IMG/VR virus record: IMGVR_UViG_3300046528_000120
Span: 1 to 64,000 of that record
DNA: 64,000 nt
Source: a virus
Taxonomy: Duplodnaviria; Caudoviricetes
Reading direction: 5' to 3' (one strand)
Of the stretch, positions 4,701 through 50,498 are shown piece by piece (positions within the stretch are counted from its first letter, which is position 1; each line of letters begins with the position of its first letter). Both the position numbers and the translations under genes were made by a program. The notes beneath the pieces are model-generated. The model made no database searches. It was not told where the DNA came from and saw nothing but the letters and a program-made list of their open reading frames with translations.

Positions 4701-5070
4701 CAGTTCAAACCCGATGCTCCGGCGCCTGGAGCGAACCAAGAACCTGAGCGGGTCGCATCGCCGCGCCCCGAAGCAGGAACGCGAACTCGCCAAGTCGCTT
4801 CGTGGTTCCCTCACCCCGGCCAGCGGCGCGCGCGATACCAAGGGCGACGTGCGCATCAAGGGCATCGCCAGGATCGAGGCCAAGACCACCAAGAACAAGA
4901 GCTATTCGCTGACCGTCGAGACCGTGCACAAGATTGAGGAAGCCGCCACTAAGTCGGCCGAGGTGCCGGTCATCGTGATCGAGTTCAATGACGGCCAGGG
5001 CAAGAAGCTGCACGAGTTGGCGGTCATGCCGATGTACGCCCTGCAAACCTTAATCGACAACCAGAAATGA
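4693..5070 (+). CDS. PD-(D/E)XK nuclease, Holliday junction resolvase-like
   Basis: KQERELAK…TPASGA…KGDV…IEAKTT. Confidence 0.75.
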   Translation: MSDSSNPMLRRLERTKNLSGSHRRAPKQERELAKSLRGSLTPASGARDTKGDVRIKGIARIEAKTTKNKSYSLTVETVHKIEEAATKSAEVPVIVIEFNDGQGKKLHELAVMPMYALQTLIDNQK

Positions 5071-6011
5071 ACGTACGCCGCAACCCACGCACCCCGGTGG
5101 TACGCAAGCTCGCCGCCGCCGTCCAGACCACGGCGCTGCCGCAAATTGCGATCAAAATTCCACGTAACGCCAAGGTTGAATGCCCGACAGACGAGCACCT
5201 GATCGGCGACATCCTGAAGGCAACTCCGCGCCTGCGCCGGCCGCCGCGCCGTGATGGCTACATGCACGTCTCCGACCTGATCGGTAAGGGCAAGTGCTCG
5301 CGCAAGATCGCCATTGCCGCCAAGTACGGCACCCCGGTGCGGCCGAGCCGGCTGTCGATCTTCGACCGCGTCGTCTACGCCATCGGCGACGCCATCCATG
5401 ACACCATCAAGAAGATCGCCACCGAGGGCGCGCCTGATCGTGTCTGGGGTAAATGGAAATGCCAGTGCGGCCACCTCTACCACGAAGAGCCGTGCTTGCA
5501 ATCCGAGATCGACCCAGAGGACATCTGCGAGCTGTGCCACACCGGTTCGGTGTACTACCAGGAAGTCTCCATCTTCAATGATGAATACAACATCGTGGGC
5601 AACCCCGACTTGTTGCTATACCTTTCCGAAGTCGACGCATTCCATGTGACTGAATTGAAATCAATTGCACATGAGGCCTGGGCCGAGTTGGTCCGCCCCT
5701 TACCCGAGCACGTCTTGCAAGTCATCTTCTATTGGTTCCTGATGGCAATGGCCGGCTACCGCCTGACCGACCGCATCTCGGTCGTGTATATCACCAAGGG
5801 CTACCAGTTCAAGGGCGACGCCCATAAGGAATTCATGCTCGACCCGACCAAGGAGCTGCACCGCCTCTTGCCGTACCTGGAAGACGCGCGCGCCGCCAAG
5901 CTCTCGGCCACTGAGGAACGCTACCCGGCCCGCAAGCTGTGCAGCAATGAGTTCTCGACCCTCGCCAAGAAGTGCGAAGTCTGCACAACCTGTTTCGCTC
6001 TCCCAGGATAA
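5067..6011 (+). CDS. Cas4/RecB-like PD-(D/E)XK exonuclease with Fe-S cysteines
   Basis: HVSDL…CSRK, GDAIHD, GNPD, ELKS, HVLQVIFY, C-terminal C…CEVC…C. Confidence 0.8.
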   Translation: MNVRRNPRTPVVRKLAAAVQTTALPQIAIKIPRNAKVECPTDEHLIGDILKATPRLRRPPRRDGYMHVSDLIGKGKCSRKIAIAAKYGTPVRPSRLSIFDRVVYAIGDAIHDTIKKIATEGAPDRVWGKWKCQCGHLYHEEPCLQSEIDPEDICELCHTGSVYYQEVSIFNDEYNIVGNPDLLLYLSEVDAFHVTELKSIAHEAWAELVRPLPEHVLQVIFYWFLMAMAGYRLTDRISVVYITKGYQFKGDAHKEFMLDPTKELHRLLPYLEDARAAKLSATEERYPARKLCSNEFSTLAKKCEVCTTCFALPG

Positions 6012-6013
6012 GC

Positions 6014-6691
6014 ATGCGTGTTCTCCGCACCCCGCCGGCCCCGCGCCGGCCCGCCCGCATCATCCGCGCCGCGCCAGTCGCCCAGGTCCGCGTGCTCGGT
6101 ATTGATGCAAGTCTAAGTTCGACCGGCTACGCCTACCGCTACCGTGGCGCCGTAGTCACAGGCTCGATCCCTACTAAGAAGATGTCGGGAATGGCGCGCC
6201 TGGAGCATGTCCGTTCTATGCTGGAGCAGATTGCCGACCGTTGCCAACCAACCTTTATTGTTTTGGAGGACTACGCCAAGGGTAAAGGCGGCCTGGGGCG
6301 CACGTTCGACATCGGCGAACTAGGCGGCATCATCAAACATTATTTCTTCCTGCGCGGAATTGATGTTATGCTTGTCTCACCGACGACGTTGAAGATGGCA
6401 ATCACAGGGCGTGGCAATGCCGACGCCGCCCAGGCCGTCGCGGGCAGGAAGACCAAAGTAAAAGACAAAACCAAACCGGAGATGCGCGCCGCGCTGCGGA
6501 ACACGTTCGGCATCGTCACCGACCAGGGCGACGAAGCGGACGCCGCTGGCCTCATGCTACTTGGCGAGATACGCCAGAGCGCCGGCACCGTTCCGCGCTC
6601 GGTTCAGTCCAAGCTGCGGCTTCACTCTTTACGCGATTGCGTTATTATTCAGTCGTCGCAACGAACTTTGAAATTGATTGCAGCGAGATAG
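6014..6691 (+). CDS. RuvC-like Holliday junction resolvase
   Basis: VLGIDASLSSTG, VLED, GELGG, PTTLKMAITGRGNA, DEADA. Confidence 0.85.
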   Translation: MRVLRTPPAPRRPARIIRAAPVAQVRVLGIDASLSSTGYAYRYRGAVVTGSIPTKKMSGMARLEHVRSMLEQIADRCQPTFIVLEDYAKGKGGLGRTFDIGELGGIIKHYFFLRGIDVMLVSPTTLKMAITGRGNADAAQAVAGRKTKVKDKTKPEMRAALRNTFGIVTDQGDEADAAGLMLLGEIRQSAGTVPRSVQSKLRLHSLRDCVIIQSSQRTLKLIAAR

Positions 6692-6793: not shown

Positions 6794-8161
6794 ATGGCAA
6801 CCGCAAACAAAGCAGCCCCGAAAGCAGCAGCAAAGACCACCGCAACCAAGCCGGCCGCAAAAGCTGCACCGGCAGCAAAAACAGCTCCGGCAGCTAAAGC
6901 CGCCCCAGCCGCTAAGCCCGCAGCAAAAGCTGCTCCGGCCCCGGCAGCAAAGCCGGCCGCGAAGCCCGCCGCGAAAGCCGCACCGAAAGCCGCCGCCGAG
7001 CCGGCCGTGCCCGATACCCTGGACGTTGGCGTCGTCGTCCTCTTCAACGGCTACGATGCCGAGACCCCGGAGGCCGAGCGCCTGATCCCGGACGGCCACC
7101 GCGCCGAAATCCTCGAAGTGGTCCCGGACGAGAACCCGGAAAACACCAGCTACGTCATCCGCGTGCCGAACCCCGACTTCAACCCGGGAGTGGCCGAAGA
7201 CGACGCCACCAACCCGGCCGAAATCGAAACCTCGGCATTCGGCTTCGAGCTGACCATCGACGGAGACCAGACCCCGGTCAACGCCGGCGCCGCCCCGGTC
7301 GAGACCCCGGCCGCTGAGCCGGTCAAGAACGGCCGCAAGAAAGTCGCCGCTGCCAAGACCACCGCAGTCGAGACGCAGGAACAGCCGGCCAGCGATGAAC
7401 TGCCGGAACTGGCGCAGGAAGACGAAAACGTCCTCGCCCTCGTCGCCGAAGCCGAGCAAGTCGAAGGCGGTCTGGTCGGTATCGCCCAGGGCCTGGAACT
7501 GGACATCGAAACCAAGAACTTCCAGCTCGGCGGCGTCCTGTACCACATCAAGCGCGACGGCTCCTACAAGGAACTGGACGAGCGCTATGCGGAAGCCAAG
7601 GGCTTCGATGCCTTCGTCGCTGACCACTTCGGCTTCTCGTACCGCAAGGCGATGAACCTGATCGACATCTACGTCGCCTTCAACCAGCTCGGCATCGAAG
7701 ACGCCGGCAACGTGGTCGCCGAGATCGGCTGGACCAAGGCCTCGAAGCTCGCCGTTGCGATGGACGACGAGAACGCCCTGGAACTGATCGAACTGGCCCG
7801 CAACAACACCGTCGAAGGCCTGACCGATGCGATCAAGTCGGCCAGCGTCGAAGTCGGCGGCACGCCGGGCGAGAAGAAAACCCGCGTCACCATGAAGTTC
7901 CGCTTCTGGGAAGACGAAGGCAAGGCCCTGGAAGACACCATCAAGGAAGTCCAGGAAGCCCAGGGCCTCAAGACCCCGGACGAAGCGTTCGCCTTCATCG
8001 TGACCGAGTTCAAGATGGCCCAGGGCGGCGAAGCCCCGGTCACCGAAGCCCCGGCCCAGGTCGCCCCGGCAACCCGCGCTGGCGCCGCCCGCCCGGCAGC
8101 GAAAGCAGCAGCGAAGCCGGCAGCGCGTCCGGCACGTCAAGCCGCGACCGCCGCCGCCTAA
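6794..8161 (+). CDS. DNA-binding protein with histone H1-like PAAK tails and a DUF3102-like helical domain
   Basis: N- and C-terminal (K/P)AAK repeats; central LGGVLYHIK…GFDAFVADHFGFSYRKAMNLIDIY; strongly biased codon use. Confidence 0.75.
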   Translation: MATANKAAPKAAAKTTATKPAAKAAPAAKTAPAAKAAPAAKPAAKAAPAPAAKPAAKPAAKAAPKAAAEPAVPDTLDVGVVVLFNGYDAETPEAERLIPDGHRAEILEVVPDENPENTSYVIRVPNPDFNPGVAEDDATNPAEIETSAFGFELTIDGDQTPVNAGAAPVETPAAEPVKNGRKKVAAAKTTAVETQEQPASDELPELAQEDENVLALVAEAEQVEGGLVGIAQGLELDIETKNFQLGGVLYHIKRDGSYKELDERYAEAKGFDAFVADHFGFSYRKAMNLIDIYVAFNQLGIEDAGNVVAEIGWTKASKLAVAMDDENALELIELARNNTVEGLTDAIKSASVEVGGTPGEKKTRVTMKFRFWEDEGKALEDTIKEVQEAQGLKTPDEAFAFIVTEFKMAQGGEAPVTEAPAQVAPATRAGAARPAAKAAAKPAARPARQAATAAA

Positions 8162-8239: not shown

Positions 8240-9001
8240 ATGGCAACCAGTGCCCGTACCCCACATACCACGCGCGCCCCGGCGCGCTCTGCAATCAATC
8301 GCAACGCTGCTGCCGCTGCGGTCGCATCGACCGTGACCCCGCCAGACTGGGCGCGCCGTCGCCTTGAAATCCAGTATCTCGCCATCGACGACATCGTGCC
8401 GTACGAATGGAACCCGCGCGACAATGCCGAAGCGGTCGCCGCCGTCGCCAACTCGATCCGCCTGACCGAAGGCTTTGGTATGCCTATCGTCGTGGACGCC
8501 GATAACGTCATCATCGCCGGCCATACCCGCGTCGAGGCCGCGAAAGTCCTGGGCCTCCTGGAAGTCCCGGTGGTCCGCCTTGACCACCTCAGCCCCGAAG
8601 CCGTCGCCGCCTTCCGTATCGTCGACAACAAGGTGGCCGAGCAAGCCCGGTGGGACTTCGACATGCTCGCGTCCGAACTCGGCAAGCTGCGCGATAGCGG
8701 CATCGAGTTCACCGATTACGGCTTCAGCCAAGGCGAGCTGGATTGCATGTCGCAGATCGTTGCCGAAGATTGCCTGTCCGTTACCCAGTTGACCCCGGTC
8801 GCTGAGGAAGCCACCGCCGCCCACGTCGCCGCCCAGGGCACGCGCGCCCCGACCCGTACCCGCATTGTGGTCGGTGAGATGGTGCAATTCGTCGACGCCC
8901 CGGTCTACCGGAGCTGGATGAACGGTATCCGTGAGCTGTGCAACTTCGACGAGGCCGCGATCAACGCCGAACTGCGCCGCCGCCTCGGCATTCCAGGGTA
9001 A
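8240..9001 (+). CDS. ParB/Srx N-terminal domain protein
   Basis: IVPYEWNPR…GFGMPIVVD…IIAGHTRVEAA…AFRIVDNK…WDFDML; AGGAG RBS. Confidence 0.88.
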   Translation: MATSARTPHTTRAPARSAINRNAAAAAVASTVTPPDWARRRLEIQYLAIDDIVPYEWNPRDNAEAVAAVANSIRLTEGFGMPIVVDADNVIIAGHTRVEAAKVLGLLEVPVVRLDHLSPEAVAAFRIVDNKVAEQARWDFDMLASELGKLRDSGIEFTDYGFSQGELDCMSQIVAEDCLSVTQLTPVAEEATAAHVAAQGTRAPTRTRIVVGEMVQFVDAPVYRSWMNGIRELCNFDEAAINAELRRRLGIPG

Positions 9002-9005
9002 CTCG

Positions 9006-9230
9006 ATGTTCCGCCTATTCGCCCTCTCGGTGCTGCGCTTGCCCTACCTCTTCCTGCTGTGCCCGATTATCTTCGCGCTCCGCAGGATCGGTGCCATGTG
9101 CATCACCGTCGAGGCCTGGGCGCACCGCACGCATGACAAGGTCCAGTCCCACGCCATGCGCTTCATCGACCGCGCCCAAGCTGATCTCAAACTCCTGAAG
9201 GAAAAGAGCAATGCGCACCGTACGCCGTAA
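9006..9230 (+). CDS. Small hydrophobic hypothetical protein
   Basis: Fills the gap between the ParB genes; hydrophobic N-terminus. Confidence 0.45.
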   Translation: MFRLFALSVLRLPYLFLLCPIIFALRRIGAMCITVEAWAHRTHDKVQSHAMRFIDRAQADLKLLKEKSNAHRTP

Positions 9231-10755
9231 CCCGCGAGCCGCCGCGCCCGCTGCAACCGGTATCCAGATGGTGGATACCTACAGCCTCACCCCGGACAAG
9301 ACCAACCCCCGAAAGCCGGACCCGGCCCGCCTGGGCTTGCTGCGTCTCTCGATTGCAAAGCTAGGCTTCTTAATGCCGGTATTTGCGGCGAAGTCGACCG
9401 GACTTCTGCTGTCAGGTCACCAGCGTCAGACCGTCTCGAAGGAATTGGAATTGCCGCAAATTCCGGTGATGTACGTGGACATCAAGGACGATGACATTGC
9501 CGGCGTCAACATCCTGTTCAACCGCACCACCAACGACTTCGGCGCGTTCGACACTGGCTCGGATGCCAAGAACAAACTCGACATCGAAGCGGTGATCGCA
9601 GCGGCTGAGGAATTGCCGGATGCGGACCCGGACAATCCTTTTGCAATCAATTGCAAGATGGAGACGATTGCACCGATCCTGGCCGCGAACAGCGATGCCT
9701 TCAACGACAAGGCCGCCAGCCAAGCCCAGGCGATCCTGCGGATGGGTATCAAGATTCCGGCCGTGGTCTCGAAGTCAGGCGTGATCGTCAACGGCGTCCA
9801 CCGTTTGTTCGGCGCAGCCGGCGCCGGCATGACCGAGTGGCCTATCGTCCGCGTGCCGGATCAGATCGCCAGCGTCGCGACCAACTTCCTGAACTACCTG
9901 TCGATGGACTTCCACGTCGACGACGACTTCAAGGCGCTGATTCGTCACTCGGCCTACCGCCGCCCGCAGAACAACCGGGGATCGCTCGGTAAGTCGTATC
10001 GGTTCTGGGCGAATGGTGAGCGCACCCTGATGGACCGTGACAGCTACGGCCCCGAGTTCTTCGCCAAGTTCCGTGACATCCACGGCCAGACCATGCTCGA
10101 CTTCGGCGGCGGCCTGTGCCAGTCGGCTCCGTACCTGCGTGAGAAGGGCTTCGACGCCTACGACTTCGAGCCATTCCGCATCGACCCGGATAGCGGCGTG
10201 GGCGTGCCATCGCCGGACTACTCCAAGCGCAAGGCCAGCGAGTTTTTGCAATCAATTGCAAGCCCGAAGCTGAAGTTTGATTCGATCTTCCTGTCCTCGG
10301 TCCTCAACAGCGTGCCGTTCGCGGAAGACCGCCTCGTCGTCCTCGCCATCGTCCACGCGCTGTGCGGCCGGAACACCACGGTGTATGGCACCTGCCGCGA
10401 CATCTCCGACTTCAACTACGAATACGGTGGCATCCGCAAGGCCAACTACTTCACCTTCGATACGGAACCGGGCGTGCGCGTGGGCGACGTGATGCGCAAC
10501 CCGAAGATTCAGAAGTTCCACACCAAGGAAGAGGCCAAGGAGATGTTCCACCGTTTCTGGAAAGAAATTGATTTCTGGGACGGCGGGAATGTATTCTACT
10601 GGCGCCTGCGCGCACCGATGGGATTCCGCCCTGACGTGGTAAGCAAGGCGCTGGAGCTGGAGTTCGACTTGCCGTACGCCGATGGCACCACGATGGGGCT
10701 GGTGGCGGAAGCCAAGAAGGCATTCGGCCGGCGCCTGGGCGTGACCTTGAAATAG
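9211..10755 (+). CDS. Tandem ParB-like domains fused to a class I SAM-dependent methyltransferase-fold domain
   Basis: NPRK…GFLMP…LLSGHQR; a second ParB-like IPAVV…IVNGVHR; MTase motif I MLDFGGG, YDFEPF, FDSIFLSSVLNSVP. Confidence 0.85.
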   Translation: MRTVRRNPRAAAPAATGIQMVDTYSLTPDKTNPRKPDPARLGLLRLSIAKLGFLMPVFAAKSTGLLLSGHQRQTVSKELELPQIPVMYVDIKDDDIAGVNILFNRTTNDFGAFDTGSDAKNKLDIEAVIAAAEELPDADPDNPFAINCKMETIAPILAANSDAFNDKAASQAQAILRMGIKIPAVVSKSGVIVNGVHRLFGAAGAGMTEWPIVRVPDQIASVATNFLNYLSMDFHVDDDFKALIRHSAYRRPQNNRGSLGKSYRFWANGERTLMDRDSYGPEFFAKFRDIHGQTMLDFGGGLCQSAPYLREKGFDAYDFEPFRIDPDSGVGVPSPDYSKRKASEFLQSIASPKLKFDSIFLSSVLNSVPFAEDRLVVLAIVHALCGRNTTVYGTCRDISDFNYEYGGIRKANYFTFDTEPGVRVGDVMRNPKIQKFHTKEEAKEMFHRFWKEIDFWDGGNVFYWRLRAPMGFRPDVVSKALELEFDLPYADGTTMGLVAEAKKAFGRRLGVTLK

Positions 10756-10763
10756 GAGATGCA

Positions 10764-10922
10764 ATGCCTGAGATGAACCCGTACAAAGAAGGCTACGACG
10801 CCTTCAAAGCTGGCAAGAAGCGTAACGACAACCCGCACCACATGGCGTCGAGTGCGCATGATGCGTGGCATGACGGCTACGACGACGCCGAACAGGAGGC
10901 AGCGGAAAGCAACACTAACTGA
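10764..10922 (+). CDS. Small Rmf/CrpP-fold-like protein
   Basis: MPEMNPYKEGYDAFKAGKKRNDNPH…AWHDGYDDA (52 aa, below the ORF-track cutoff); AGGAG RBS. Confidence 0.55.
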   Translation: MPEMNPYKEGYDAFKAGKKRNDNPHHMASSAHDAWHDGYDDAEQEAAESNTN

Positions 10923-11012
10923 AATTGTGTCCACCAATTGTGGACGAGCAACGTTTCCTTGCGGTATTCTGTGGCCTGTCAATCCCCCATCGAATACTGC
11001 AAGGAGACTTCC

Positions 11013-11420
11013 ATGCAAGACCAGCAAAATCAGCAGGCCGGCGCTACCGTAGTCCTCGCTGAAGGCGACCGCATTATCTCTGGCAATATCACCGCCAGCC
11101 AGATAGCGGCCCTATCCCTCCCTACCCTGCCCCCGATGTATCCCATCACTGGCGCACGTACCCTCTCCGAAGAGGAAGTCGCGCTGATGAACGAGATCAA
11201 TCACATGGGAGATCAGGTGCACGCCCTCATCGAGAAAGTGCGCGGCCTGCACATGACCGACATCGCCCGCAGTCACGGCAACCTGGAAGACGGCAGCAAG
11301 ATCAGGGAACTCGCCCGCCTCGTCGAGCAGGGCCAGCACTGGCGCATGCGCGCCGTCGACGATTTGCAAGCCGGCTTCATGAAGCTGAAGCGCGCCGTCG
11401 CGCGTCCGACCAATTTCTGA
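11013..11420 (+). CDS. acb2: Acb2-like nucleotide-signal sponge (anti-CBASS family)
   Basis: ITGARTLSEEEVALMNEI…HW…DLQAGFMKLKRAVARPTNF matches the Acb2 pattern I.GYR.LS.EEI..MN…W……D.Q.G.M…RA.A.P..F; AAGGAG RBS. Confidence 0.78.
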   Translation: MQDQQNQQAGATVVLAEGDRIISGNITASQIAALSLPTLPPMYPITGARTLSEEEVALMNEINHMGDQVHALIEKVRGLHMTDIARSHGNLEDGSKIRELARLVEQGQHWRMRAVDDLQAGFMKLKRAVARPTNF

Positions 11421-11436
11421 TTGCAATCAATTTCAA

Positions 11437-11634
11437 ATGCTAAAAATCTGCATATACACGGTTGACGGCACTGTAGAGGTTCGCGAAGTATGCGATGCCC
11501 AGCAGGTCATCGGTCTGCACATCATCGGCTACTTTCCGGTGCCAGGAGTTGTACCCGATACGCCTCAGAACCGTGAACTGATGCAAACCATTGATCGGCG
11601 CATCGCGTCGCGCAATCCACGTCTGAAAGCCTAA
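11437..11634 (+). CDS. Hypothetical protein
   Basis: Short ORF between the 16-bp motif and the cmoA-like gene. Confidence 0.45.
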   Translation: MLKICIYTVDGTVEVREVCDAQQVIGLHIIGYFPVPGVVPDTPQNRELMQTIDRRIASRNPRLKA

Positions 11635-11637
11635 GAT

Positions 11638-12372
11638 ATGAACGCCCCTGTACACTTCCCGGCTAACCCGGACAAATTCGAGTTCGATGCTGAAGTCGCC
11701 AAGATTTTCCCGAACATGGCGAAGCGCTCGATCCCGAACTATGAGCAGTTCCACGAGCTGCACGCTGGCATCACCGCCCGCCTGTTCCCGAACGATGGCG
11801 CGCGCATGCTCGACGTTGGCGCATCCCATGGCGCGTTCTTCCAGCACCTGTTCCGCCAGTTCTGGCGTGGCAACGATGCAGTGCCGAAGTACGAGCTGAC
11901 TGCCATCGACACCTCGCCGGCCATGTGCGCCACGCTGCGCACCTTCTTCCCGCAAGCAAAGGTGCTCGAAGGCGACATCACCGACGCCCGCGTCCAGGTC
12001 TTGCTGGCCGAAGCCGGCCCGTACGATGTCGTGAATGCCACCTACGTCATCCAGTTCATCCACCCCGATCTGCAAAAGCGCACCCTTCGCTTCCTGGCCA
12101 GCCTCGTGCGCGAGGGCGGTATCCTGATCCTGGGGCAGAAGGACAAGATCAGCACCTCGCCGCTGAGCGCCCTCGTGAACGAGCGCTATATCGACTGGCG
12201 CGTCGACAACGGCTATACCCGCAAGGAGATCGACGCCAAGACCCGCGCGCTCCAGAACGCCATGTGGCCGATGTACCACGATGTCCTGATGGAGACCCTG
12301 ATGCACCTCTTCCGCGACGTGCAGCAGACCACCCGCACCTTCATGTTCAACACCCTGATCGCCTACAAGTAA
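11638..12372 (+). CDS. cmoA: CmoA-like carboxy-S-adenosylmethionine synthase / class I MTase
   Basis: FEFDAEVAKIFPNMAKRSIPNY, LDVGASHG, AIDTSPAM, EGDI, IQF, GGILILGQK, NGYTRKEIDAKTRALQNAM and FMFNTLIAYK are colinear with CmoA over the full length. Confidence 0.82.
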   Translation: MNAPVHFPANPDKFEFDAEVAKIFPNMAKRSIPNYEQFHELHAGITARLFPNDGARMLDVGASHGAFFQHLFRQFWRGNDAVPKYELTAIDTSPAMCATLRTFFPQAKVLEGDITDARVQVLLAEAGPYDVVNATYVIQFIHPDLQKRTLRFLASLVREGGILILGQKDKISTSPLSALVNERYIDWRVDNGYTRKEIDAKTRALQNAMWPMYHDVLMETLMHLFRDVQQTTRTFMFNTLIAYK

Positions 12373-12373
12373 C

Positions 12374-13261
12374 ATGCCGACCGACGACAATATCCAACCA
12401 GGGCCGCAGCGCATCCTGCGAGGCCGGCGCCGTGCGATGGGCGCGGGCAGCTCGACTCGCACCGAATCGCTGCGCACCAGTGCCGAGCCGGATGAGATCG
12501 ACGATGTGATCGACCCGCATCAGGCCCATGATCGCATCGTGCGCGAGGTCCGTACCCGCCCGATCCCGACCAGCAACCCGCCGCAACTGCCGCCGCCGCA
12601 AGCCGCTGCGCGCCCGACCCAGCGCAATGCGCCACGCAACGAAGGCGACATCCGTGATCCGCGCGACCGCATGGAGCAGGTGGCGATGGCCGGCAGCGAA
12701 GCGTATTCGCGCGAGTACCGCCAGACCGTGATCGGCCGCATGCTGATGCGCGGCATCCCGCTGGATCAGATCGCCGTCGAGCTGGGTTGTTCGGTCTCGA
12801 CCATCGAGAAGGACCGCGCCGCCTGGAAGCAGCGCTTGCGCGAGAGCGCCCGCCAACTGGACATCAACGAGATCATCGGCGGCCAGAGCGCGATGTACAG
12901 CGAGCTGTCCAGCATGGCGTTGCGCGTCGCCACCAACGGTGACACTCCGACCCCGATGCGCCTCGCCGCCATGCGCACCACCCTGGCCGCCGAGGCAGAT
13001 CGTACCCGCTTCCTGAATACGGCCGGCGTCTTCGATGTCCTGCGCTACCGCAAGTCGGAAGACGGCACCGATGTGTCCGATGTCCAACTGCTGATGGGCC
13101 GCACCGACGAAATGATTCAACGCCTGTTGGTAGACGAAGCACCACCGGCCCGCCCGGCGCGCGTCAACCGCACCCCGCCCCGCCGCGCTGGCGGCTTCGC
13201 TCCGATGACGATGGACGACCGCGCCGCCAGCAGTGGCGATGCCGAGAACGTCGAGCTGTAA
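12374..13261 (+). CDS. Terminase small subunit (HTH)
   Basis: HTH GIPLDQIAVELGCSVSTIEKD; immediately upstream of the large subunit. Confidence 0.7.
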   Translation: MPTDDNIQPGPQRILRGRRRAMGAGSSTRTESLRTSAEPDEIDDVIDPHQAHDRIVREVRTRPIPTSNPPQLPPPQAAARPTQRNAPRNEGDIRDPRDRMEQVAMAGSEAYSREYRQTVIGRMLMRGIPLDQIAVELGCSVSTIEKDRAAWKQRLRESARQLDINEIIGGQSAMYSELSSMALRVATNGDTPTPMRLAAMRTTLAAEADRTRFLNTAGVFDVLRYRKSEDGTDVSDVQLLMGRTDEMIQRLLVDEAPPARPARVNRTPPRRAGGFAPMTMDDRAASSGDAENVEL

Positions 13262-40648: not shown

Positions 40649-41549
40649 CCGGCCGACGCCGGAGCGCCGCTTCGTCCTGTTGCCGGGTCCAGTGCTAAGC
40701 GCGCATGACGGACAGGCGCATATCATCGACGCCTCTCGGCTTGGCATGCTGTACCGTCTCCGGCCGAACGAGTATTACATCCTGAATCCGGTCGATTACA
40801 GGCGCGCCACCGCCACCCAGGTCGGCGACCACCAGCTAAGGATGAGCGGGTTCCTGCTTCAGGGCATCATGCCGCTGAGGCCGCGCGAGACCGGCGACTA
40901 CGATGCCTACCGCCAATGGGTCGAAACAAACTGGCGCGAGGCGATCCGCCGTGAGATGGAGCAGTTCGACATCGAGATGAGCCGGCCGCCATCGGCCGAA
41001 CAGAGAATCAACAACCAGAGAGAACAACGACGTGAACAAGACGCACACAACTGGCGCGGAGTACGAAACTTCGGCGGCCTCCCCCTCGACGCCCGCATCC
41101 GCATCCCACGACCGCGCGTGCAGCCCAGCGACAACGGCTACGGCTTCCGCTTCCAGCTCGACGCGACCGAGTGGGAACAGCTCGTCAACGACGAAGGCGG
41201 GCAAGGTCTCAGCCGGGAAGAAGTCGCGCGGCGGCTCGACGAAAGTGGGCGCGCCCGCCCAAGCAACCGGCAAGACGAGTGGGAACAGGCCATTGCCTTT
41301 CTACTCGCTGGAGGCGCCGACACCGACCAGTTCACGCCGGGCGTCGTCGAAAGCGTCCGCCGCCTCGACGCTGAAGAACTCAGCGCCCTCGCGCGAAGTG
41401 ACAGTGATCAAGGGCAACCGGGCGGGCCTGCGCAGCAAGATGCTGGCAGCGTTCCACCAGGACACGATCAGCGCAGTGCAGAGAGCGCAGCAGATGATCG
41501 CGCAGCACGACTTCTGGCCGGTCGCGCTCCCCGGCGGCTCAAGCGGTAA
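40641..41549 (+). CDS. Hypothetical protein
   Basis: PGPVLSAHDGQAHIIDASRLGMLY pattern; 3' end overlaps the next gene. Confidence 0.65.
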   Translation: MVSRPTPERRFVLLPGPVLSAHDGQAHIIDASRLGMLYRLRPNEYYILNPVDYRRATATQVGDHQLRMSGFLLQGIMPLRPRETGDYDAYRQWVETNWREAIRREMEQFDIEMSRPPSAEQRINNQREQRREQDAHNWRGVRNFGGLPLDARIRIPRPRVQPSDNGYGFRFQLDATEWEQLVNDEGGQGLSREEVARRLDESGRARPSNRQDEWEQAIAFLLAGGADTDQFTPGVVESVRRLDAEELSALARSDSDQGQPGGPAQQDAGSVPPGHDQRSAESAADDRAARLLAGRAPRRLKR

Positions 41550-42156
41550 ATGGACGGTGTATCAGGCCACGGTGTCGCCGGAGAAAGCCATGATGGACAG
41601 CCTCAAGCACTGCATGGCGGGCTTCCCAGAGATGAGCGTCAGCCCTGGCACCTACACGGTCCTGGCGCGCGCCACCACGCACGGCCCCGAGGTGATGATG
41701 TCCAACACCCAGTTCGAGTACCGCACCAACATCGAGTTCGTCGGGCGCGCCCACGGCCAAGTCTTGGTGAACGGGCTGGGCATCGGCATGCTGCTCCGGC
41801 CGCTCGCGGCGCGCGCCGAGGTCGAGCGAATCACCGTGGTCGAGAAGGACCGCGACATCTTGCAATTGATTGCACCGCACTACCAGGACTTGATCGACGC
41901 CGGGAAATTGCGCATCATCCATGGCGACGCCTTTAAGTACGTGCCGGATCAATACTACGATTGCATCATGCACGACATCTGGCCGACCACCAGCACCTAC
42001 AACCTGACCGAGATGATCGCGCTCAAGCGCCGCTACCAGCACCTGATGGCGGGCCGCATCATCTCCCAGCATTGCTGGGCTGAAGAAATTTGCTGGCGCA
42101 TGGCCGGCACCGTCACCACCTTGAAGCAACTGAAACGGAGTATGAAGAATGACTGA
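41398..42156 (+). CDS. Class I SAM-dependent methyltransferase (spermidine-synthase-like fold); start uncertain
   Basis: MMSNTQFE…VLVNGLGIG…ITVVEKD…IIHGDAF…YDCIMHDIW. Confidence 0.8.
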   Translation: MTVIKGNRAGLRSKMLAAFHQDTISAVQRAQQMIAQHDFWPVALPGGSSGKWTVYQATVSPEKAMMDSLKHCMAGFPEMSVSPGTYTVLARATTHGPEVMMSNTQFEYRTNIEFVGRAHGQVLVNGLGIGMLLRPLAARAEVERITVVEKDRDILQLIAPHYQDLIDAGKLRIIHGDAFKYVPDQYYDCIMHDIWPTTSTYNLTEMIALKRRYQHLMAGRIISQHCWAEEICWRMAGTVTTLKQLKRSMKND

Positions 42157-48055: not shown

Positions 48056-48437
48056 CACGCCGGCACCAACCCCGGCCCCGGCCGCCAAGGCATCGCCACC
48101 GCGTCCTGCACGCCGCGTGATCCCGATCAAGGCCCAGGCCCCGGCGAAGCCCGCCGCAGCCCCGGTCGAGGTCAAGGAGAAGCTGGAGGGCGGCAACGCG
48201 GTCAACTACAAGGCCGTGGTCGAGCGGTACAAGGGCAAGATCACCAACCGCGCCAGCGCCATCCGCGCCCACTGCATCGAATGTTGCTGCGGGGTCGTTT
48301 CCGAAGTTCGCGCGTGCACCGTTAAGAAGTGCGCGCTGTTCCCATTCCGTATGGGCGACGACCCGTACCGAAAAAAGCGCAACGACGGTTTCGTCGGTGC
48401 CAACAAAAACGAAGAGTCCAACGAGGGAGACGAATAA
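47991..48437 (+). CDS. Cys-cluster hypothetical protein
   Basis: AIRAHCIECCCG…EVRAC…CALFPFRMG. Confidence 0.7.
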   Translation: MTPPKRIVRSALRAAPSSSPPSTPAPTPAPAAKASPPRPARRVIPIKAQAPAKPAAAPVEVKEKLEGGNAVNYKAVVERYKGKITNRASAIRAHCIECCCGVVSEVRACTVKKCALFPFRMGDDPYRKKRNDGFVGANKNEESNEGDE

Positions 48438-48497
48438 ATGCTGGGAGGGATCACAGGCCTGAAATTGCAAGTGATTGCAAAATGCCAGCGGCACTAG
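48438..48497 (+). pseudogene. Orphaned original 5' end of the dNMP kinase gene (MLGGITGLK…)
   Basis: ATG directly follows the upstream TAA; the first 9 codons parallel the kinase start MLVALTGLK at 49126. Confidence 0.6.
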
Positions 48498-49132
48498 ACC
48501 TCCGTGGCCAGCGCTTTTCTAGACTGGTGGCGCAATCCATTGCCTCATCTGGTAGAGAGGGCATTGTCTGGGTCTGCCGCTGCGATTGTGGTAATACAAC
48601 CCAGGCTGCGGCCAAGAGCTTGCGAAGTGGAAATACTAAGTCGTGCGGATGCCTTGATCGCGAATTGGTAGTACAGCGTAACCAGAGCAGGACTAAGCAT
48701 GGCATGTCGAATACGGATACATATCGTATCTGGCAGTCCATGATCGCGAGGTGTGAGAACCAGAAAAGCCGTGCGTACCCAAACTATGGTGGTCACGGCA
48801 TTACCGTATGCGCACGTTGGCATAGGTTCGAGAACTTCCTGGAAGACATGGGGGAGAAGCCCGAAGGGCTCAGCCTGGAGCTAGAGAATAACGAGCAAGG
48901 CTACTGCAAATCAAATTGCAAATGGGCTACAGCTACAGAACAGAGCAATAATCGAAGAAGCAATGTCTTGCTAGAGCATGAAGGCCAGAAGCTCACAATT
49001 GCCGAGTGGGCGCGAATTACTGGAATCCCGGCTAAGACGCTGGGTTACAGAATCAGGCAGGGATGGGCCGTATGCGATGCACTATCGCTCGGTGCTGAAG
49101 GAAATAACCACTATAAGAGGAAAAAATGTTAG
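48482..49132 (+). CDS. HNH-type homing endonuclease
   Basis: DLRGQRFSRL…WVCRCDCG…TKSCGC…YRIWQSMIARC…YGGHGITVC.RW..FENFLEDMG…NCKWAT; AT-richer codons. Confidence 0.88.
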   Translation: MPAALDLRGQRFSRLVAQSIASSGREGIVWVCRCDCGNTTQAAAKSLRSGNTKSCGCLDRELVVQRNQSRTKHGMSNTDTYRIWQSMIARCENQKSRAYPNYGGHGITVCARWHRFENFLEDMGEKPEGLSLELENNEQGYCKSNCKWATATEQSNNRRSNVLLEHEGQKLTIAEWARITGIPAKTLGYRIRQGWAVCDALSLGAEGNNHYKRKKC

Positions 49133-49818
49133 TTGCTTTGACAGGATTAAAGGGAGTAGGCAAGGATGAAGCGGTGAACCATCTGGTATCGCTCGGCTTC
49201 ACCAAACTCGCGTTCGGGGACGCGATTTACAAGGAACTTGCAATCAATTTCAAGGTGCCGGAAGAATTCCTGCGCATGCGCGAGGTCAAGGAGACGCCGC
49301 ACCCCCGGCTCGCCTTGGCCTACTGCCAAGACCATGAATTCGTGCGCTATATTGTCGCCAGCGCCATGACACTGCCGGCCGGCTGCGACCACGGCATCCG
49401 CGCGCTGTCACGCGACGAGCTGACCAAACCGCGCACCAGTACCTGGCTCACCCAGCAATGGGCTACCCAGTACCGCCGCCGGCACTTCAGCGACGACTAC
49501 TGGACCCGCATCGTGGTCGACCAGATCAGGGCGCTGCCGCGCGGCACCAACGTCGTCTTGAGCGACTTGCGCCACTTCCCGGTTGAAATGGCAGCGTTCG
49601 ACGCTTACCGCGACACCCACACGCACCGCGCCGGTAGCCTGACCATCGCGCCGGCCATGGGCATCCTGGAGCTGACCCGCGACGGCAGCATCAATACCGG
49701 GCATGACTCGGATCGCGGCCTGCCGCGCGATCTCATCGACAAGACGTACGTCAACAACGGCACCCTGACCCAGCTCTACGCTGCCCTCGAACTGTTCATC
49801 ACCCTGGAGATCAAGTAA
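49126..49818 (+). CDS. Deoxynucleoside monophosphate kinase
   Basis: P-loop TGLKGVGKD, AFGDAIY, VVLSDLRH, H.SD.GL, YVNNGT. Confidence 0.85.
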   Translation: MLVALTGLKGVGKDEAVNHLVSLGFTKLAFGDAIYKELAINFKVPEEFLRMREVKETPHPRLALAYCQDHEFVRYIVASAMTLPAGCDHGIRALSRDELTKPRTSTWLTQQWATQYRRRHFSDDYWTRIVVDQIRALPRGTNVVLSDLRHFPVEMAAFDAYRDTHTHRAGSLTIAPAMGILELTRDGSINTGHDSDRGLPRDLIDKTYVNNGTLTQLYAALELFITLEIK

Positions 49819-50498
49819 TGTCCAAAGTAGCACTCTGCATCAAGACCGTCGACGCCCCCGCCTCCGTGCGCTGCATCATCACCGGCACCCACCTGATCGA
49901 ACTCACCGAAGAGTTCTTCTACACCCCGGCCCAACTGGAGCCGCGCGCCACCTGCGAGACCGACAACAAGCTGCTCCAACTACTGCCGTACATCGTCGTC
50001 CAGGATGAGCATGACCGCGTGTTCCGCTATTTCCGTGGCGCGGCCGGCACCGAGAACCGCCTGCACGGCGCGATCAGCATCGGTCTCGGCGGCCACGTCG
50101 AAACCATGCCAGGACAGCAGCAGCCGGGCGCAGCCTACTCGGCCGATTCGCTGTTCGCCCACTTGAAGGAAGACGCGGTGCGCGAGATCGACGAAGAGAT
50201 CGGCATCAAGGTCGACCCGAAGAGCATCGAGTTCGTGCATCTGGTCTACAACCCGACCGGCGTCAATGAAGTGCACCTCGGCATCCTCGGCATCGCCCGC
50301 GTCAACATGGGCGGCCGGACGGAGCTGGCCCAGGAAGAGGGCGTCATCACCCAGGGCGGGTTCATCAACCCCGAGACCGAGCTGTACGATCACCCGGAGC
50401 TGTACGCACGTTGCGAGGAATGGACCAAGGCCGCGCTCTGGTATCTGACCAATCAAGCAGCCCGCAAACGAGTCCAGACCGCGCGTGCCACCGCATAA
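49818..50498 (+). CDS. NUDIX-fold phosphoesterase
   Basis: ETD…QLLPY…R…ENRLHG..SIGLGGHV…REIDEEIG…VHLG. Confidence 0.82.
   Translation: MSKVALCIKTVDAPASVRCIITGTHLIELTEEFFYTPAQLEPRATCETDNKLLQLLPYIVVQDEHDRVFRYFRGAAGTENRLHGAISIGLGGHVETMPGQQQPGAAYSADSLFAHLKEDAVREIDEEIGIKVDPKSIEFVHLVYNPTGVNEVHLGILGIARVNMGGRTELAQEEGVITQGGFINPETELYDHPELYARCEEWTKAALWYLTNQAARKRVQTARATA

Follow-up and report, generated by a model that had tools for sequence, protein, structure and literature searches.

A CmoA-family gene lies beside a ParB-ParB-methyltransferase gene in a rhizosphere phage

The DNA analyzed here, referred to below as the window, comprises the first 64 kb (64,000 nucleotides) of a complete 103,099-bp phage record with direct terminal repeats (IMG/VR record IMGVR_UViG_3300046528_000120). 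The phage DNA was found in five DNA data sets, four of which are rhizosphere metagenomes. The window genome carries approximately 140 open reading frames (ORFs), with the plus strand used throughout. Two of these genes are the subject of this study (Table 1): one encodes a fusion of two ParB/Srx domains to a class I methyltransferase and is a candidate carboxymethyl transferase gene, and the other encodes a CmoA-family protein, a candidate synthase of carboxy-S-adenosylmethionine (carboxy-SAM). They are preceded by a gene for a stand-alone ParB/Srx-type protein and followed by genes for a helix-turn-helix (HTH) protein and a probable large terminase (TerL). A preliminary description, made from the sequence of the window, had proposed that these genes form a DNA carboxymethylation system. 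The observation itself was confirmed, including the stand-alone ParB upstream, and the reading placed on it was partly supported.

We searched the complete 103,099-bp genome for C5 methyltransferase (PF00145), CmoB (PF08003) and tRNA genes and detected none. The earlier statement that the window lacks a cmoB or C5 methyltransferase gene thus holds for the whole genome, and the cmoA-like gene is not explained by such a partner elsewhere. A third, unrelated gene, Rossmann methyltransferase- or spermidine-synthase-like, is present at 41032-42156 (phrog_15480, E 4e-35; weak Spermine_synth match). Its homologues occur in Caulobacter, Gordonia and Microbacterium phages. We rejected this gene as the CmoA partner, as it has no homologue in Samunavirus or in phage Evaa and its family occurs in phages without cmoA.

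The fusion gene and a CmoA-family gene are conserved neighbors

The preliminary description had suggested a survey of the co-occurrence of the two genes. We counted distinct loci, drawn from viral contigs and bacterial genomes, in which the sequence continued for 1.5 kb or more past the fusion gene, and found the fusion gene and a CmoA-family gene as neighbors in 186 of 191 loci. The CmoA-family gene nearly always lay just downstream of the fusion gene on the same strand, mostly less than 1 kb away. The pairing was present in 58 of the 60 loci closest to the window, in all 60 loci of a second, distant viral branch, and in 68 of 71 bacterial-genome loci, which span Alphaproteobacteria, Verrucomicrobiota (including Akkermansia), Chloroflexi, Cyanobacteria, Lachnospiraceae, Vibrio, and others. 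In total, the family was found on more than 400 IMG/VR contigs, with relatives in the genomes of 162 bacterial species. At the level of sequence, this linkage supports the view that the CmoA-like protein and the fusion are a real functional pair.

In the window lineage, the gene order is exonuclease, RuvC, 455-amino-acid (aa) protein, ParB, fusion, CmoA-like protein, HTH protein, and TerL, and the inserts separating the two enzyme genes vary. The stand-alone ParB gene lies upstream of the fusion gene in all related loci that reach that far. Identity to the window proteins in lineage loci was 55-77% for the fusion (mostly 57-63%) and 34-43% for the CmoA-like protein; for TerL it was 55-76% to the neighboring gene of related loci, mostly 55-65%. 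Cultured carriers are Pseudomonas phage SM1 and eleven other Samunavirus records, Aeromonas phage HJ05, and Gordonia phage Evaa, and in all of them the best NCBIfam match of the partner was CmoA. In Evaa, ParB and the fusion come first and are separated by two reverse-strand genes from the CmoA-like gene, which the terminase gene follows. A search of GenBank phage nucleotide sequences with the module returned no match, and its relatives are visible at the protein level only.

A C5-methyltransferase-like ORF was found 2 to 3 kb upstream of the fusion gene in only seven loci (L100:23-1003; L115, L119:3730-4731; L188, L189, L197, and L241 at ~1400-2700), and some phages may therefore hold both kinds of transferase.

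The fusion protein combines two ParB/Srx domains with a class I methyltransferase domain

The preliminary description of the fusion protein was borne out in each part: it has two ParB-like domains and a Rossmann methyltransferase domain with LDFGGG (residue 296) and SSVLNSVP (residue 362), and neither a PC dipeptide nor a (D/N/S)PP(Y/F/W) motif, and hence no NPPY or DPPY, occurs anywhere in its sequence. The first ParB/Srx domain matched PHROG ParB families over residues 12-117 (E 1e-18 to 1e-15), with a Pfam ParB_N score of 21.5 bits, which is below the cut-off. The second is a diverged copy of the first, as shown by hhalign of residues 12-125 against residues 140-228 (probability 98%, E 1.6e-13). 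Pfam gave a weak Methyltransf_23 match to residues 289-393, and the matches in the ESM Atlas were to generic Methyltransf_23 clusters only. The full-length AlphaFold2 model was confident (predicted local distance difference test [pLDDT], 93; predicted template modeling score [pTM], 0.90), and VIA-align matched residues 236-472 of this model to many class I methyltransferases with Z scores of 10 to 13.7.

When the catalytic domain was used to search 1.84 billion representative proteins, 283 clusters at 50% identity were recovered. Nearly all of their members are ~500 aa long with the catalytic domain at the same place, which indicates that the fusion architecture is fixed. Within the ParB domains, N32, P33, R34, G69, R72, G195, and R198 are invariant in the family. 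Invariant or nearly invariant stretches are NPR (32-34), S68-G-H-Q-R72, N194-G195, and R198; the core residues D297, G299, G301, E320, N366-S367, P369-F370, D373-R374, E419, K432, Q434-K435, and E484-F485; and L487-P488. The core includes the hallmarks of class I enzymes, namely, the D297-F-G-G-G301 loop and the acidic E320 after strand 2. With respect to N6-adenine and N4-cytosine methyltransferases, we found no match to PF01555, PF02384, or PF02086 and no motif IV tetrapeptide; the invariant S-V-P-F (367-370), four residues after strand 4, fits only a relaxed (D/N/S)-x-P-(Y/F/W) pattern. The fusion does not belong to a known DNA methyltransferase type.

The CmoA-like protein is predicted to have the CmoA fold and retains the SAM contacts of CmoA

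As stated in the preliminary description, the CmoA-like protein is colinear with CmoA from end to end: residues 12-244 aligned with positions 13-239 of the 239-position TIGR00740 profile (E 1.7e-23). The score of 83.5 bits lies below the curated cut-off of 193.3 bits. However, CmoA of Synechococcus phage S-B43, a highly active carboxy-SAM synthase (Yang et al., PMC12783734), likewise falls under this cut-off with a comparable score of 115.6 bits. Since a validated enzyme fails too, the TIGR00740 cut-off is too strict for phage members. The CmoA-like protein also matched Escherichia coli CmoA (PDB 4gek) with an E value of 3e-17 and 30% identity. Its AlphaFold2 model had a pLDDT of 94.9, and the top six Foldseek matches of the model were the CmoA/YecO structures 4gek, 1im8, and 4iwn, with template modeling (TM) scores of 0.78 to 0.86 over ~238 columns (E 4e-17 to 1e-15). 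The model thus predicts that the protein has the CmoA fold. Of the residues listed as contacting S-adenosylmethionine (SAM) in CmoA (Byrne et al., PMC3663124), Y39, D62, G64, S66, D89, D117, and F137 are all kept in the window protein, and its lineage shares almost all of them.

Canonical CmoA partners, with Glu164 and Arg199, accompany the fusion in about 43 of the 60 loci of the second viral branch and in 38 of 68 bacterial-genome loci. The core residues of the fusion from D297 to F485 are identical whether the partner is a canonical, a window-type, or a third-type CmoA, and this suggests that one cofactor serves the whole fusion family.

Partners of the fusion and of CmoX interleave on the CmoA tree

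CmoX is the C5 transferase of the CmoA-CmoX-CmoY system described in S-B43 (Yang et al., Nat Commun 2025, PMC12783734). We calculated a maximum-likelihood tree of 40 CmoA-family proteins; its branches are long, and only starred nodes were relied on. The partners of the fusion formed at least four clades interleaved with CmoX partners, with at least four switches of the partner label. The CmoA of Evaa was sister to that of Streptomyces phage TurkishDelight (support 100/99), the CmoX-partnered CmoA of phage PaBG grouped with the L092/L147 clade of fusion partners (99/99), and the window-lineage proteins formed a separate branch (100/97). At its genome end, TurkishDelight encodes ParB, ParB, a C5 methyltransferase (PF00145, 183 bits), an AsnB-type amidoligase, and CmoA; CmoA also adjoins a C5 enzyme in PaBG and in a Staphylococcus SPbeta-like phage. 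Because its CmoA partners interleave with those of CmoX, the fusion looks like an alternative user of carboxy-SAM, and one cofactor with two interchangeable transferases is the simplest reading.

A different arrangement was seen in the Erwinia jumbo phages (Erwinia phage Alexandra, L031:5753-7670). Their CmoA gene precedes genes for a DUF1611 P-loop protein and an AsnB-like ligase, and no C5 methyltransferase gene lies immediately beside it; this arrangement may represent a further form of the carboxy-SAM pathway.

A proposed two-enzyme DNA modification module and its alternatives

We propose that the two genes encode a DNA modification module, and we give this reading a probability of roughly one half. 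The CmoA-family protein would convert SAM and prephenate into carboxy-SAM, and the fusion would move the carboxymethyl group onto phage DNA, to which it would be brought by its two ParB/Srx domains and the stand-alone ParB. In this way, the fusion would fill the place of ParB and CmoX in the published CmoA-CmoX system, and the resulting mark might protect the phage DNA from restriction. The modified atom is probably not C5 of cytosine, because the catalytic domain is unrelated to CmoX and incapable of the C5-cysteine mechanism; N6 of adenine or N4 of cytosine, the positions offered in the preliminary description, are guesswork.

Several observations weigh against this reading, and some of them concern the active site of the CmoA-like protein. 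In E. coli CmoA, Arg199 is the sole side chain touching the carboxylate (PMC4482062; salt bridge also in PMC3663124). In the window lineage, a near-invariant Thr occupies this position (Thr or Ser in essentially all members), and the position after it varies freely (R, K, Q, H, A, E, N). Glu164 is replaced by Gln in the window protein and by Gln or His in most of the lineage, and Phe133 is replaced by Tyr in the window-lineage proteins (P0122-P0189). Only Glu or Asp has been reported at position 164 of the CmoA family (Byrne et al., PMC3663124), and Glu or Asp is what we found in S-B43, TurkishDelight, Evaa, HJ05, and the other clades of fusion partners. These lineage-wide changes, and the well-supported separate branch formed by the clade, would fit an alternative in which, in this lineage of ~100-kb phages including Samunavirus, the CmoA-like protein makes another S-substituted SAM analogue or is itself a methyltransferase, and the group transferred is not carboxymethyl. 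We consider this distinctly unlikely. The validated S-B43 CmoA has Leu at Asn132 and Glu-Lys at Arg199-Ser200, so that Arg199 is neither universal nor required. The window protein preserves the CmoA fold and SAM contacts, and fusions of this lineage have the same conserved residues as fusions paired with canonical CmoA, the differences being mostly hydrophobic swaps. The preliminary description had taken two changes relative to E. coli CmoA, LNFTLQF to ATYVIQF and KRSML to KTRAL, as a sign that the cofactor may differ. We do not regard them as diagnostic, because S-B43 differs at the same two positions and the Arg position of KTRAL is variable in the lineage. The real difference, which the preliminary description had not named, lies in the conserved changes to Thr199 and Gln/His164 in an otherwise intact CmoA scaffold.

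Further points against carboxymethylation of DNA come from the fusion. ParB/Srx domains bind nucleotides as well as DNA. The catalytic domain resembles small-molecule and tRNA methyltransferases, its nearest structures being 7bgg (Z 13.7) and METTL6 (Z 13.6), followed by others such as CcbJ, ToxA, and Trm9; neither a DNA methyltransferase nor CmoB was among the top Foldseek and VIA-align matches listed. BLASTP of the fusion against CmoB showed the G-loop only, and the hhalign match was weak (probability 26% over 70 columns). An AsnB/CmoY-type ligase would indicate a carboxylate handle, but none was detected in the module region or near the fusion gene in ~230 related loci. The weak hhalign match, in which Lys91 and Arg315 of CmoB fall outside the aligned stretch, puts N366 of the fusion on Tyr200, one of three residues of CmoB that contact the carboxylate (PMC4482062); we take this alignment as a hint.

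Some of these features would suit a substrate other than DNA. In that case, the ParB/Srx domains would bind a nucleotide (cytidine triphosphate, or a deoxynucleoside triphosphate or monophosphate [dNMP]) or RNA, and free nucleotides before replication, host RNA, or protein would be carboxymethylated. ParB/Srx domains are nucleotide-binding modules, and the G-x-x-R phosphate motif is present in both copies within the fusion. Neither ParB protein showed an HTH or any other domain for reading sequence (for the stand-alone ParB, no HTH domain in Pfam or PHROGs). The nearest structural matches, METTL6 and Trm9 among them, are enzymes for small molecules or tRNA, and the genome encodes ThyA and a dNMP kinase. 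However, DNA-modifying CmoX systems carry the same kind of ParB genes alongside (1660 ParBc proteins in CmoX contigs; PMC12783734), the phage has no tRNA genes, and ThyA and the dNMP kinase lie outside the conserved module, the place of ThyA being taken in SM1 by a deoxycytidine triphosphate (dCTP) deaminase. We see only a slim chance that the substrate is not DNA.

Some loci do not fit the proposed module: no cmoA gene was found nearby in 5 of the 191 loci surveyed or in the separately obtained locus L107 (together L062, L091, L107, L192, L205, and L225). They are compatible with the fusion being an ordinary SAM-dependent DNA methyltransferase, with the CmoA-like protein linked to it by co-expression only and serving another use; it might, for example, deplete SAM in the host or contribute to tRNA modification there. 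The class I SAM fold of the fusion is a generic one without a demonstrated carboxylate pocket, phages commonly encode ParB-fused methyltransferases (phrog_498), and SAM depletion has been raised as a possible side role of phage CmoA (Yang et al., PMC12783734). Against this alternative stand the adjacency of the two genes across distant phage lineages and host phyla and the repeated exchange with CmoX beside closely related CmoAs, an exchange that is difficult to account for unless the cofactor is shared. At loci without cmoA, the cofactor could come from a CmoA of the host, just as E. coli CmoA provides it to CmoX (PMC12783734). We judge an ordinary methyltransferase to be unlikely. At L107:6001-9197, on a 115-kb European Nucleotide Archive (ENA) contig, the gene for a distant fusion-family member precedes ThyX (Thy1), and there is no CmoA-family gene within 6 kb.

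Comparison with known systems

The CmoA-CmoX-CmoY systems of S-B43, PaBG, the Staphylococcus SPbeta-like phage, and TurkishDelight resemble the proposed module in having a phage CmoA beside transferase and ParB genes, with no CmoB. In contrast to CmoX, whose C5 methyltransferase fold (PF00145) carries an SPPC motif and Arg350, the fusion gives no PF00145 match and lacks the PC and SPPC motifs as well as a catalytic Cys loop; instead, a class I methyltransferase of the small-molecule type is fused to two ParB domains, and the C5 methyltransferase fold is absent among the fold matches listed for it. CmoY also has no counterpart, as described above.

The E. coli pathway for 5-oxyacetyluridine (cmo5U) in tRNA (CmoA, 4gek; CmoB, 4qnv; PMC3663124, PMC4482062) shares the CmoA fold and SAM contacts with the module, and both CmoB and the fusion are Rossmann class I enzymes. 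However, the fusion has ParB domains instead of a counterpart of the N-terminal Lys91 region of CmoB, and the window CmoA-like protein has Arg199 and Glu164 replaced. ParB-fused phage DNA methyltransferases (phrog_498; cd16402, ParB_N_like_MT) resemble the fusion in that an N-terminal ParB/Srx domain with NPR and G-H-x-R motifs precedes a SAM-fold enzyme, often near terminases, whereas the window fusion has two ParB domains, no (D/N/S)PP(Y/F/W) motif, no amino-methyltransferase Pfam match, and a tie to CmoA. Other users of carboxy-SAM are TglE/TglF (3-thiaglutamate) and MccS/MccB of Bacillus (carboxymethyl-cytidine microcin C) (PMC10491745). As in the module, a CmoA homologue is combined with a dedicated class I transferase outside tRNA modification, but these enzymes belong to bacterial natural-product clusters, and their substrate is a peptide or peptidyl-nucleotide; the comparison with them is one of published descriptions. 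We found no description of the module in the literature, and no report of DNA modification in the literature on PaMx31 and Samunavirus.

Neighboring genes and a 16-bp site

The terminase genes that the preliminary description had placed downstream were recovered in part. TerL was assigned by a weak match to phrog_9 together with synteny, with no sequence match in Pfam or the PDB. The preceding gene is a possible small terminase gene, its product having only sub-threshold HTH matches; synteny keeps it between the CmoA-like gene and TerL in related loci. Any link between the module and packaging is positional only. The module closes the DNA-metabolism block, and in the SM1 record the terminase gene lies ~40 kb from the portal gene.

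The Acb2/Tad1-hairpin-like gene, located here between the fusion and CmoA-like genes, was not found at that position in related loci; it is an accessory gene, probably an anti-defense one, and does not belong to the conserved module. The terminase gene is followed immediately by a thymidylate synthase homologue that is longer than usual, in the slot that holds the dCTP deaminase in SM1. Immediately upstream of the structural genes, at 48329-50498, an HNH endonuclease (phrog_374), the dNMP kinase (phrog_139), and one unassigned gene are clustered. Promoter-like and terminator-like sites were no commoner between 6500 and 16500 than in shuffled sequence.

Table 1. Genes, domains, and sites in and around the candidate modification module
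Feature	Position	Strand	Supporting matches or remarks
Exonuclease gene	5067-6011	+	
RuvC-like resolvase gene	5972-6691	+	
455-aa protein, no assigned role	6794-8161	+	phrog_17202
Stand-alone ParB/Srx-type protein, 271 aa	8186-9001 (alternative start 8240)	+	phrog_620, E 2.6e-43; Pfam ParB_N, 25.1 bits, slightly below cut-off
ParB-ParB-class I methyltransferase fusion, 514 aa, candidate carboxymethyl transferase	9211-10755	+	phrog_5475, E 8e-125
Fusion, ParB/Srx domain 1, residues ~18-125	9262..9585	+	NPR and SGHQR motifs
Fusion, ParB/Srx-like domain 2, residues ~140-228	9628..9894	+	VNGxxR motif
Fusion, Rossmann class I methyltransferase domain and C-terminal segment, residues ~234-514	9910..10755	+	Conserved EFEFDLPY in C-terminal segment
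Acb2/Tad1-hairpin-like gene	10938-11420	+	PF24729, 29.2 bits; phrog_717
65-aa ORF			Between Acb2/Tad1-hairpin-like and CmoA-like genes
CmoA-family protein, 244 aa, candidate carboxy-SAM synthase	11638-12372	+	
HTH-containing protein, 295 aa, possible small terminase	12374-13261	+	Sub-threshold HTH_7, HTH_23, and Sigma70 region 4 at residues 110-155
Probable large terminase, 656 aa	13283-15253	+	phrog_9, E 1.6e-5 on residues 446-586, weak; synteny
Thymidylate synthase homologue, 322 aa	15276-16244		PF00303, 283 bits
16-bp sites in or beside the module (five copies)	9641..9656; others start at 8289, 10246, 11421, 13263		
Other examples of the 16-bp site in the window	4646, 18466, 28285		

A 16-bp quasi-palindrome, TTGCAATCAATTGCAA, occurs 73 times with at most three mismatches in the 103 kb, compared with 0.1 copies expected from shuffles. 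The site is made up of two TTGCAA hexamers, each palindromic, at a distance of 10 bp, is found about once per 1.4 kb, and is often intragenic; two perfect copies lie within the fusion gene. HJ05 has TTGCAA-N4-TTGCAA with another center and SM1 has TGCAAACGCTTGCA, both of which keep the TGCAA/TTGCA arms. We did not find a dense 16-bp site in Evaa or in the other two branches of the fusion family. The site was therefore rejected as a general companion of the module; it is confined to the window lineage and HJ05 and belongs to the phage lineage. These sites may still be loading points for the ParB proteins of this lineage.

Significance

The first description of carboxy-SAM-dependent DNA modification dates from December 2025 and includes one type of transferase only, CmoX, acting on C5 of cytosine; a preliminary search by the same authors found no candidate adenine-N6 or cytosine-N4 carboxymethyltransferases with CmoA (Yang et al., PMC12783734). 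The fusion family is a widespread candidate for a second, non-C5 route. In a broader and more tentative form, which we think possible but somewhat doubtful, it would represent a second, independently evolved class of carboxy-SAM-dependent DNA-modifying enzymes in phages of many bacterial phyla, marking a non-C5 position and so producing an undescribed natural base. In the window lineage, such enzymes might be loaded by ParB at the 73 TTGCAA-N4-TTGCAA sites, and the Thr199/Gln164 CmoA might provide them with a variant cofactor. The family is directly testable, because cultured phages (Samunavirus, HJ05, and Evaa) carry it. If the proposal is true, it would add a new natural DNA base and a new enzyme for site- or context-specific placing of a reactive carboxyl handle on DNA, and it would give a defined role to ParB/Srx domains fused to modification enzymes.

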